DNA of 1,060 nucleotides from Escherichia coli (lineage in GTDB: Bacteria; Pseudomonadota; Gammaproteobacteria; Enterobacterales; Enterobacteriaceae): assembly GCF_003334385.1 (NCBI RefSeq), contig NZ_QOWN01000129.1; one strand, given 5' to 3'. Position 1 is the first letter of the stretch. Every line of letters starts with the position of its first letter. Position numbers and translations under genes: made by a program. Positions 1 through 1,060 of this stretch are shown piece by piece. The notes under the pieces are model-generated. The model searched no databases and was not told the origin of the DNA. It saw nothing but the letters and a program-made list of their open reading frames with translations.

Positions 1-402
1 CTCCCCGCCATTGACGATCAAAAATCCTTTCCCCGGGGCACGTATGCCACACACCAGGGCGGACTCTGGCGGGCGTATGAAAAAACGCACGGGATGCGGG
101 GATGGGAATGCCTGGTTGACGGGGTGGCGGATATTGACGTCAGCATGACGGGTGAACGGTTGTTCTCTGTGGTGGTCCGGCAGAGCAGTGGCCAGCGTAC
201 GGAAAAAACATTTTCCCTGCCGGTGATGCTCTACCGCGGTGTGTTCAGAGCCGGTGAAACCTACCACCCCGGCGATACGGTGACGTGGGGGGGCTCGCTG
301 TGGCACTGCAACAGTATGACCGAAGATAAACCCGGAGAAGCTCATTCATCAGCCTGGACCCTGGCTGCAAAACGTGGGCGGGATGCAGGAGGCGGAAAAT
401 GA
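1..402 (+). CDS. Phage structural-module protein of unknown function, 5'-partial (start lies upstream of the window); C-terminal region has a tandem W/G-rich motif resembling a small carbohydrate-binding (CBM5/12-like) domain
   Basis: Frame 1 is open from nt 1 through the TGA at 400-402 (hand-translated, no in-frame stop in 1..93), so the ATG at 94 in the ORF track is probably internal. Stop overlaps the next gene's start (ATGA, 399-402). Same strand and codon style as the two recognisable phage genes downstream. Product is unassigned; the motif resemblance is from memory only. Confidence 0.65.
   Translation, partial: LPAIDDQKSFPRGTYATHQGGLWRAYEKTHGMRGWECLVDGVADIDVSMTGERLFSVVVRQSSGQRTEKTFSLPVMLYRGVFRAGETYHPGDTVTWGGSLWHCNSMTEDKPGEAHSSAWTLAAKRGRDAGGGK
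387..392 (+). promoter_or_regulatory. Shine-Dalgarno (AGGAGG) for the connector gene, lying inside the 3' end of the upstream CDS
   Basis: Perfect AGGAGG with a 6-nt spacer to ATG 399; the start then overlaps the upstream TGA, a typical translational-coupling arrangement. Confidence 0.7.
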
Positions 403-725
403 CGGCATTACTGACACTGGAAGAGATCAAGGCACATCTGCGTGTTGACCATGACGCGGATGATGACATGCTGATGGACAAGGTTCGTCAGGCTACCGCC
501 GTGCTGCTGGCCTACATTCAGGGCAGCCGGGATAAAGTGATTCGTGAGGACGGTGAACTGATCCCGGGCGAGGCATTAACCCGGATGAAGGGGGCTGCCA
601 TGCGACTGACCGGGATGCTGTACCGGAATCCGGATCTTGCGGAGCGGGAAGAACTGCTTCAGGGGGAGCTGCCGTTTTCTGTTTCCGTGCTGATTTACGA
701 TTTGCGTTGTCCGACGGTGTTATGA
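399..725 (+). CDS. Phage gp6-like head-tail connector (head-tail adaptor / DNA-packaging) protein, 108 aa
   Basis: The N-terminus MTALLTLEEIKAHLRVDHDADDDMLMDKVRQATAVLLAYIQ matches the signature of the gp6-like connector family (LTLEE-K-HLRVD, then an acidic D-rich stretch, then a helical A/L-rich segment). Size (~100-110 aa) is typical. Perfect AGGAGG at 387-392 sits 6 nt upstream of the ATG. Start overlaps the upstream stop; stop at 723-725. Confidence 0.85.
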   Translation: MTALLTLEEIKAHLRVDHDADDDMLMDKVRQATAVLLAYIQGSRDKVIREDGELIPGEALTRMKGAAMRLTGMLYRNPDLAEREELLQGELPFSVSVLIYDLRCPTVL

Positions 726-730
726 GGAGG
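724..730 (+). promoter_or_regulatory. Shine-Dalgarno (GAGGAGG) for the head-closure gene, overlapping the stop codon of the connector gene
   Basis: GAGGAGG at 724-730, followed by GGGA and then ATG at 735; it overlaps the TGA stop (723-725) of the preceding gene. Confidence 0.7.
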
Positions 731-734
731 GGGA

Positions 735-1060
735 ATGGCAATATCTGCAGGTCGTCTGACACAGATGATAAGTGTTCTGAACCCGGTGTTAACCCGTAAT
801 GCTGCCGGAGAAATGACGGAAGAATGGGTGTCATGCGGGAAAATTCATGCGGATATCCGGGGCAGGAGCAGCCGGGAGCGGATGCAGTCCGGTGCGGAAA
901 TGGCGCAGGCGGAAATCCGCATCTGGGTGCGCGGTCAGTCCGGTCGGGAAATCACGGCGGCGTCACGACTTCATGTGCTGAGTGGTCCCTGGCGTGACTG
1001 TATCCTGAATGTTGTCGGGGTGCCCGTGCCGGATGCGACCGGCGGGCGCCTGGAAATTCT
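735..1060 (+). CDS. Phage head closure / head-tail joining protein (HK97 gp7 / SPP1 gp16-like family), 3'-partial
   Basis: Open frame from ATG 735 to the window end with no stop (hand-translated: MAISAGRLTQMISVLNPVLTRNAAGEMTEEWVSCGKIHADIRGRSSRERMQSGAEMAQAEIRIWVRGQSGREITAASRLHVLSGPWRDCILNVVGVPVPDATGGRLEI...). The pattern (N-terminal R-x-R/L, G-E-x-x-E-W, A-x-I-R-x-x-S-x-R-E, Q-A-E-I-R-I-W-V-R) fits this family, and the position directly after a gp6-like connector gene is the canonical order. Preceded by GAGGAGG at 724-730. Confidence 0.75.
   Translation, partial: MAISAGRLTQMISVLNPVLTRNAAGEMTEEWVSCGKIHADIRGRSSRERMQSGAEMAQAEIRIWVRGQSGREITAASRLHVLSGPWRDCILNVVGVPVPDATGGRLEI

Follow-up and report, generated by a model that had tools for sequence, protein, structure and literature searches.

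The question raised by this 1,060-base stretch of Escherichia coli DNA (the window, by which we always mean the whole stretch) is what kind of element its genes come from and whether all of them are adequately described by the labels which their relatives carry. In a first-pass annotation the window was read as part of a prophage head-tail connection module. Our results lead to the same reading: the window belongs, with little room for doubt, to the late operon of an E. coli prophage, a lambdoid siphovirus of the 2851/BP-4795/phi330 type (Pankowvirus), and is the head-completion (neck) segment of that operon. Neck modules of this kind are already known and routinely annotated; the family of E. 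coli lambdoid prophages to which this one belongs is very common and counts the long-tailed Shiga-toxin phages among its members. Its recognition identifies the window as part of a prophage and teaches nothing new about the biology. The one unusual feature around the otherwise ordinary window is the in-frame fusion of the portal protein, whose gene ends in the window, to a second protein, which is here called X.

Gene layout, adaptor and head-closure protein

The window is filled by three tightly packed co-directional open reading frames (ORFs), all on the plus strand, and the coding strand is G-rich along the whole length. The first ORF (1-402) is open from base 1 and comprises the last 133 codons and the TGA stop codon (400-402) of a long 'portal' ORF, whose length is 860-915 amino acids in relatives. 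This 3' end is a third gene in the window, which was absent from the first-pass annotation. The second ORF (399-725), starting with the ATG at 399 and ending with the TGA at 723-725, is a complete gene for a protein of 108 amino acids. The third ORF begins with the ATG at 735 and has no stop codon before the window ends; positions 735-1060 hold the first 108 of its 116 codons.

The junctions between the genes are overlapping or nearly so, as had been claimed. At the first junction (387-402, plus strand) the ATG of the second gene (399-401) overlaps the TGA of the portal/X ORF (400-402) in the sequence ATGA, and an AGGAGG (387-392), which reads as a Shine-Dalgarno sequence, lies six bases 5' of this ATG. 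The ATGA layout suggests translational coupling. The second junction (725-734, plus strand) is a 9-nt spacer, to which we add the last base of the preceding stop codon: the ribosome-binding site of the third gene, another AGGAGG (725-730), shares this one base, 725, with the stop.

The first-pass annotation had named the two small genes a gp6-like connector gene and a head-closure gene, and both names proved to be right. The product of the second ORF matched the Pfam family of gp6-like connectors (PF05135, Phage_connect_1) with an E-value of 1.5e-7 and PHROG 40 ('head-tail adaptor Ad1') with 1.3e-30, and its score against TIGR01560 (46.8 bits, cut-off 24) was above the curated family threshold. 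A profile built from six Ad1 orthologues matched the solved adaptor chains 30yu_C (1.8e-5) and 9lbn_I (2.2e-4); a literature search for the PDB entry 9lbn returned nothing relevant. The AF2 model of Ad1 is all helical (pLDDT 88.5), and its top structural neighbours found by Foldseek were the SaPI1/80alpha neck chain 9mu3_A and SPP1 gp15 (7z4w_a), both at a non-significant level (E 0.57, TM 0.42). In relatives the protein is labelled 'head-tail adaptor Ad1' or 'head-tail connector protein'. The sequence comparisons thus confirmed 399-725 as a predicted head-tail adaptor gene of the gp6 (HK97) / gp15 (SPP1) type.

The third ORF was likewise confirmed, from the similarity of its product to known families, as a predicted head-closure protein Hc1 of the SPP1 gp16 type. 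The fragment encoded in the window matched PHROG 25 ('head closure Hc1') with an E-value of 1.3e-27, and a full-length orthologue matched PF05521 (Phage_HCP) with 3.5e-16. The gene region of this orthologue differs from the window in 4 nucleotides, 2 of which are in the ORF, both synonymous. The full-length orthologue scored above the threshold of TIGR01563 (gp16_SPP1; 23.7 bits, cut-off 20.6), and the fragment, from which the last 8 codons are missing, scored just below it (20.5 bits). The fragment also matched PDB entry 2kz4 ('putative head-tail adaptor', 3.5e-17), an NMR structure of 112 amino acids solved for another protein of the same family, in which roughly 45% of the aligned positions are identical by eye. 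The alignment runs from end to end, therefore a close member of the family has a solved structure. The family scores of both Ad1 and Hc1 are far above chance level.

An Rfam scan of the window (E<=1) identified no RNA family. A search for promoters and terminators returned one candidate of each kind, in both cases on the minus strand; these were dismissed because such sites were about as numerous in shuffled sequence. The two longest ORFs on the minus strand (493-834, 113 amino acids; 245-481, 78 amino acids) had no PHROG match at E<=1 and were treated as shadow ORFs of the G-rich coding strand.

Phage relatives and the morphogenesis cluster

Relatives of the window are abundant. A megablast search of 5,426 complete E. 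coli genomes found the whole window matched in 1,245 of them at 90-99% identity; the best match was 99.2% identical, and in none of the genomes was the sequence identical. With six exceptions the matching places (2,915 of 2,921) were chromosomal. In addition, 92 phage records matched at 95-99%, most of them Stx1a-, Stx2a- or Stx2c-converting phages. Among them are 2851 (Pankowvirus pv2851), BP-4795, Stx2a_WGPS6 and vB_EcoS_phi330, which are 98.5-98.9% identical to the window across the 1,060 bases (about 9-13 point differences) and carry these three genes in unchanged order (gp59-gp58-gp57 in 2851), labelled portal, head-tail adaptor Ad1 and head closure protein. The portal ORFs of 2851 and phi330 differ from that of the window in ending two codons earlier, without the ATGA overlap; in 2851 the early stop results from a G-to-T change at window position 394. 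In the phi330 record a 2-nt insertion splits the portal from X, and X contains three further single-base indels; these changes are either real or sequencing errors, and the record was given no weight as evidence on the fusion. Phage phi330 is a plaque-forming siphovirus with an icosahedral head of 55 nm, a flexible tail of 145 nm and OmpC as receptor (PMC12502783).

The terminase, portal, protease and capsid genes which had been predicted to lie upstream, and the tail-completion and major tail genes predicted downstream, were present in the near-identical relatives. In phage 2851 and in the prophage of DETEC-S792, the nearest chromosomal relative, the upstream genes are, in this order, those of an HNH endonuclease, TerS, TerL, a prohead protease/major capsid protein (MCP) fusion, a small ORF (annotated in DETEC-S792 only) and the portal. 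The protease/MCP fusion is a single ORF of 645 amino acids, which matches the HK97 models TIGR01543 and TIGR01554. The portal gene is followed by the genes of Ad1, Hc1, an HK97-gp10-like protein (81 bits against TIGR01725), the gp17 tail-completion protein and a major tail subunit with an Ig domain, then by the genes of two tail chaperones and of the tape measure; minor tail proteins come next, with tail tip proteins and tail fibre or host specificity (J-type) proteins. The Hc1 gene overlaps the following Ne1 gene in the relatives. The DETEC-S792 prophage starts with an integrase and an excisionase gene adjoining ompW, which agrees with the integrase that was to be looked for at the boundary of the element. 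Thus, DNA nearly identical to the window is found in E. coli prophages and in Stx phages with a full morphogenesis cluster, and the proposal of a prophage head-tail connection module is upheld.

The claim that the gene order is HK97-like held in part. From the adaptor to the head-closure gene the order is as claimed, but upstream it is not, because the protease-MCP fusion precedes the portal gene and the canonical HK97 order (TerL, portal, protease, major capsid, adaptor) is not found in the E. coli relatives. With the upstream order TerL, protease-MCP, small ORF, portal, the direct upstream neighbour of the adaptor gene is therefore the portal gene and not a capsid gene. The order TerL, protease-MCP, small ORF, portal(-X), adaptor was also found in nine other loci (Salmonella, Halomonas, metagenomes). 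The order Ad1-Hc1-Ne1-Tc1 defines the Type 1 (SPP1-like) neck (PMC4362835). In the window Ad1 and Hc1 are adjacent, and the relatives go on with the HK97-gp10-like protein and gp17, in agreement with this neck type.

It must be noted that the morphogenesis context was read in near-identical relatives, and that the window alone does not decide whether the source element is intact or a remnant. All three ORFs in the window are intact and their ribosome-binding sites are preserved. Comparison with three relatives showed that 5 of 8 ORF-internal differences (relative L002) and 8 of 13 (L001 and L011) are synonymous. Intact frames and mostly synonymous differences fit maintained function, as far as this can be judged from the reading frames. 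The same features, i.e. complete frames with their ribosome-binding sites and few, mostly synonymous substitutions relative to functional phages, speak against the alternative that the module sits in a decayed cryptic prophage remnant, whose genes have ceased to contribute to virions in the source genome. The cluster from TerS to the major tail gene (9.4 kb) was matched at >=80% in one place in 972 of the 5,426 E. coli genomes; thus the whole cluster is present in most of the genomes that bear the segment, which also argues against a remnant. We consider a remnant rather unlikely, though it keeps some weight: the segment occurs in up to 8 copies per E. coli genome, many lambdoid prophages of EHEC-type strains are defective, about 270 of the roughly 1,245 segment-bearing genomes have no contiguous match of >=80% to the 9.4-kb cluster, and some of the cluster matches end within the portal ORF (query position 6554).

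The domain at the C-terminus of the portal ORF

The protein encoded by bases 1-402 matched PHROGs 16748, 1289 and 2271 with E-values between 1e-85 and 1e-93. PHROGs 1289 and 16748 have either no function assigned or a carried-over 'portal' label. In the 915-amino acid form of the ORF the portal domain PF04860 covers amino acids 54-382 and portals in the PDB align to amino acids 43-420, whereas the stretch encoded in the window corresponds to amino acids 783-915 and is outside the portal fold. Between the portal domain and these last 133 amino acids there is a segment which looks helical by eye, then a tandem repeat with a unit of 162 nt (54 amino acids). The repeat, which is upstream of the window, is present in 3.3 copies in phage 2851 as compared with 4.3 copies in the DETEC-S792 prophage.

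The AF2 model of the 133-amino acid domain is all beta (pLDDT 91.7). The domain contains two CBM5/12-like motifs, GGLWRAYEKT at about amino acids 20-29 and GDTVTWGGSLWHC at about amino acids 91-103. A weak match to Pfam CBM_5_12 (PF02839; 0.026) was found at amino acids 865-887 of the 915-amino acid ORF, and many X homologues carry a precomputed PF02839 match. Foldseek neighbours of the model, all with modest scores, were chitin-binding domains of the CBM5/12 type, tail fibres of phages and phage proteins with collagen repeats; the CBM5/12 matches covered 45-55 residues with an rmsd of 1.4-6 and E-values from 1e-3 to 0.3. The best E-value obtained with a profile against the PDB was 0.0019. On the grounds of sequence and model we assign bases 1-402 to a conserved domain, predicted to be all beta, which forms the C-terminus of the fused protein X and is not part of the portal fold.

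X also occurs as a separate gene. It encodes a protein of 190-703 amino acids in one prophage each of Salmonella and Halomonas and in five metagenomic contigs, where it overlaps the stop codon of the portal gene by 8-16 nt and has the Ad1 gene directly 3' of it; the gene order in these loci is TerL, protease/MCP, small ORF, portal, X, Ad1, Hc1. In all loci examined X lies between portal and adaptor. In the general layout of X an N-terminal helix is followed by a tract of repeats (collagen repeats or a 27-amino acid helix-proline unit), which varies in length, and by the double CBM5/12-like domain; in some members the repeats ahead of the conserved domain are collagen repeats (PF01391). A profile search with the family found at least 1,147 cluster representatives (50% identity clusters) at E<=1e-30. 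The median length is 314 amino acids (calculated from 145 of the best hits), and in 146 of the 150 best hits the domain is at or near the C-terminus. The remaining four are proteins of 1,771-4,341 amino acids with 18-39 stretches of motif matches, and for these the listed match is internal. Only two of the 150 best family representatives contain a portal domain, the E. coli type and, from a distant lineage, a metagenomic protein of 1,237 amino acids, which has about 25 repeats of 27 amino acids and the same synteny.

These data bear on the possibility that the 'portal' label of bases 1-402 is adequate, i.e. that the C-terminal part is an extended crown or barrel of the portal and not a separate module. 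We find this improbable. The existence of separate X genes in Salmonella, Halomonas and the five metagenomic relatives, starting at the position of an internal ATG of the E. coli ORF, is hard to reconcile with it, as is the rarity of the portal domain among the best family representatives. A domain that is predicted to be all beta and CBM5/12-like, and which in other members is preceded by collagen repeats, is also not what an extended portal would lead one to expect. Some portals, such as that of P22, do have long C-terminal helical extensions, and by eye the sequence just past the portal domain looks helical; moreover, a single uninterrupted ORF encodes both parts in E. coli, and almost every record labels it as portal. 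Our preferred reading remains that of a separate module, and by this reading the label 'portal protein', attached to the ORF of 860-915 amino acids, to PHROG 1289 and to thousands of partial entries, hides a separate and widespread fibre-like module.

The ATG at codon 455 of the E. coli portal ORF (MTERELSII) aligns exactly with the start of the Salmonella X protein (MDERELSII). About 13 nt 5' of this codon there is a purine-rich stretch, AGGGGGGA, where Salmonella has GAGAGGAA. The alignment with the Salmonella start and the retained purine-rich stretch might allow production of free X by internal initiation at codon 455, although the spacing is long. In the second fused lineage (L013) only a weak GGA precedes a candidate internal ATG. 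We also considered whether portal and X could be joined by a programmed frameshift in the lineages with split genes. In five of six loci X is in the +1 frame, therefore a classical -1 frameshift is a poor fit, and this possibility was set aside.

The collagen-type repeats and CBM5/12-like modules of X point to a trimeric fibre which is exposed and binds carbohydrates. On the other hand, the constant adjacency to the portal gene and the two fused lineages suggest that X is attached to the C-terminus of the portal, facing the interior of the capsid; to our knowledge the portal C-terminus points into the capsid in all known portals. The features of an exposed fibre are in conflict with this inward orientation. 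It is possible, and we propose it tentatively, that X forms fibres tethered to the portal, for instance with four trimers for each dodecamer, and that these lie within the head or at the portal vertex. If this is true, the tethered fibres could organise or retain the DNA, or could have the cell envelope as their target once ejection has taken place. Alternatively, translation from the retained internal start codon could yield X as an ordinary decoration fibre on the outside of the particle. A literature search for fusions of a portal with a fibre, collagen or chitin-binding domain found nothing relevant. The recurrent fusion of X and portal poses a concrete structural question, which could be of modest importance.

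Comparison with known neck systems

It is extremely unlikely that the adaptor-like genes come from a gene transfer agent or from a capsid-forming satellite of the PICI type, because the relatives of this element are phages of 50-60 kb and phi330 is a plaque-forming siphovirus: nearly identical DNA is carried by inducible, plaque-forming Stx phages of this size, which have terminase, capsid, tail, lysis, replication and integration genes of their own, and the similarity to RcGTA (6tba; portal 7.4e-12, adaptor 0.11) and the non-significant first rank of the SaPI1 neck chain among the structural neighbours of the Ad1 model reflect the shared HK97/SPP1-type neck fold. For the same reason the genes are not isolated, and none of the cases named in the first-pass annotation as contrary to a full morphogenesis cluster fits the data.

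By analogy with SPP1 gp15/gp16/gp17 and HK97 gp6, the proteins encoded in the window would act after packaging. When the terminase has filled the capsid and departed, twelve copies of Ad1 would bind to the clip of the portal and extend the channel. Twelve copies of Hc1 would then attach to the underside of Ad1 and close off the channel, keeping the DNA inside, and the closed ring would offer a docking surface for the separately assembled tail, capped by gp17/Tc1. The gene of this tail-completion protein is two genes downstream in the relatives. The ATGA overlap, the 9-nt spacer with a strong ribosome-binding site and the Hc1/Ne1 overlap of the relatives suggest that translation of these proteins, which would assemble in a ratio of 12:12:12, is coupled.

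It is useful to compare the module with the SPP1 and HK97 systems. With the adaptor (gp15) and stopper (gp16) of SPP1, the Type 1 neck, it shares the order Ad1-Hc1-Ne1-Tc1 and protein sizes of about 100-115 amino acids (PMC4362835). The window proteins match the corresponding models (TIGR01563, gp16_SPP1; PHROG Ad1 and Hc1), and Ad1 is predicted to be all helical. The differences are the very low sequence identity and the order of the SPP1 head genes, which is portal, scaffold, MCP. The likeness to HK97 lies in the HK97-family portal of the relatives (8cez/8fql, 1.2e-19), the HK97-type protease and MCP, the gp6-like adaptor and the gp10-like protein, and HK97 gp6 is the founder of PF05135. HK97 has the order TerL, portal, protease, MCP, whereas the relatives of the window have TerL, protease-MCP fusion, small ORF, portal. 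Moreover, in the relatives the protease and the MCP are fused in one ORF, and the portal has, as compared with that of HK97, a C-terminal addition of about 460 amino acids.

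The portal ORF as a fusion with a fibre-like protein

In the E. coli lambdoid prophages the 'portal' ORF is a fusion in which an HK97-type portal (about amino acids 1-450) is joined to a fibre-like protein, here called X. Bases 1-402 of the window belong to the portal-X ORF, which in the prophage of DETEC-S792, the nearest E. coli relative, lies at L002 17655-20402. In Salmonella, Halomonas and metagenomic relatives X is a stand-alone gene of 190-703 aa located between the portal and the adaptor gene Ad1. Further portal-X or X coding stretches were found at L007 8001-8663 and, in metagenomic relatives, at L005 6512-7159 and L013 6001-9714. 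The X family is large, with no fewer than 1,147 clusters (50% identity, E<=1e-30), and has no described function.

Upstream of the window the portal-X ORF contains an in-frame tandem repeat of 162 nt (54 aa), whose copy number varies: there are 4.3 copies in the DETEC-S792 prophage (L002 19233-19936) and 3.3 in phage 2851 (L001 11404-11936), a difference of exactly one unit. A fused metagenomic homologue carries a 27-aa repeat in approximately 25 copies. The portal-X protein is marked 'partial' in many database entries; in the one that was inspected, P0028, the protein begins within the repeats, at the end of its contig.

X fragments of Klebsiella, Enterobacter and Salmonella (among P0024-P0057) carry the name 'phage gp6-like head-tail connector protein, partial', and seven stand-alone X proteins match PHROG 1289, a profile labelled 'portal protein'. 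None of these seven is fused to a portal, which is encoded by a separate gene at their loci, and they align with PHROG 1289 only in its C-terminal half (positions 144-331 of 331). Both the names of the fragments and the PHROG 1289 label are annotation carry-over.

Variation at the end of the ORF and in phage phi330

Codon 132 is GGA in the window, but phage 2851 (L001 12394-12396) and phi330 have TGA through a G-to-T change at window position 394. This makes the portal-X ORF two codons shorter and abolishes its ATGA stop/start overlap with Ad1. In the phi330 record (L011 3875-6617, PV189401.1) the portal-X region is also disrupted: a 2-nt insertion truncates the portal to 444 aa, just 5' of an ORF beginning with MTERELSII, and X is broken further on by three single-base indels. 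These differences are either real changes, in which case plaque formation would not need intact X, or sequencing errors within the repeats.

Head gene order and comparison with related phages

The head genes follow a non-canonical order, conserved between distant hosts, in which TerL and S78 protease/MCP are followed by one or two small ORFs and then by portal, X and Ad1 (L001 5383-12396; L002 13221-20402; also L005, L007, L009, L010, L013, L015 and L016). Protease and MCP form one fused ORF in most loci and are separate in L010. The small ORFs preceding the portal are 53-137 aa long, and one of them matches DUF7210 weakly. The large terminase of L005 (916 aa, L005 43-2793) has a LAGLIDADG_3 match (PF14528), which suggests an intein or homing-endonuclease insertion in TerL.

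Klebsiella (L003 971-1183) and one metagenomic relative (L013 10111-10284) have an extra small ORF of 57-70 aa, without a Pfam match, between Ad1 and the head-closure gene Hc1. The window lacks this ORF, and only 9 nt separate its Ad1 and Hc1 genes.

The DETEC-S792 prophage lacks stx genes. The late-region site 5' of the lysis genes, which holds stx in Stx phages, is occupied in this prophage by tRNA-Ile, tRNA-Arg and a SASA-family carbohydrate esterase gene (L002 4439-4600, 5833-7821).
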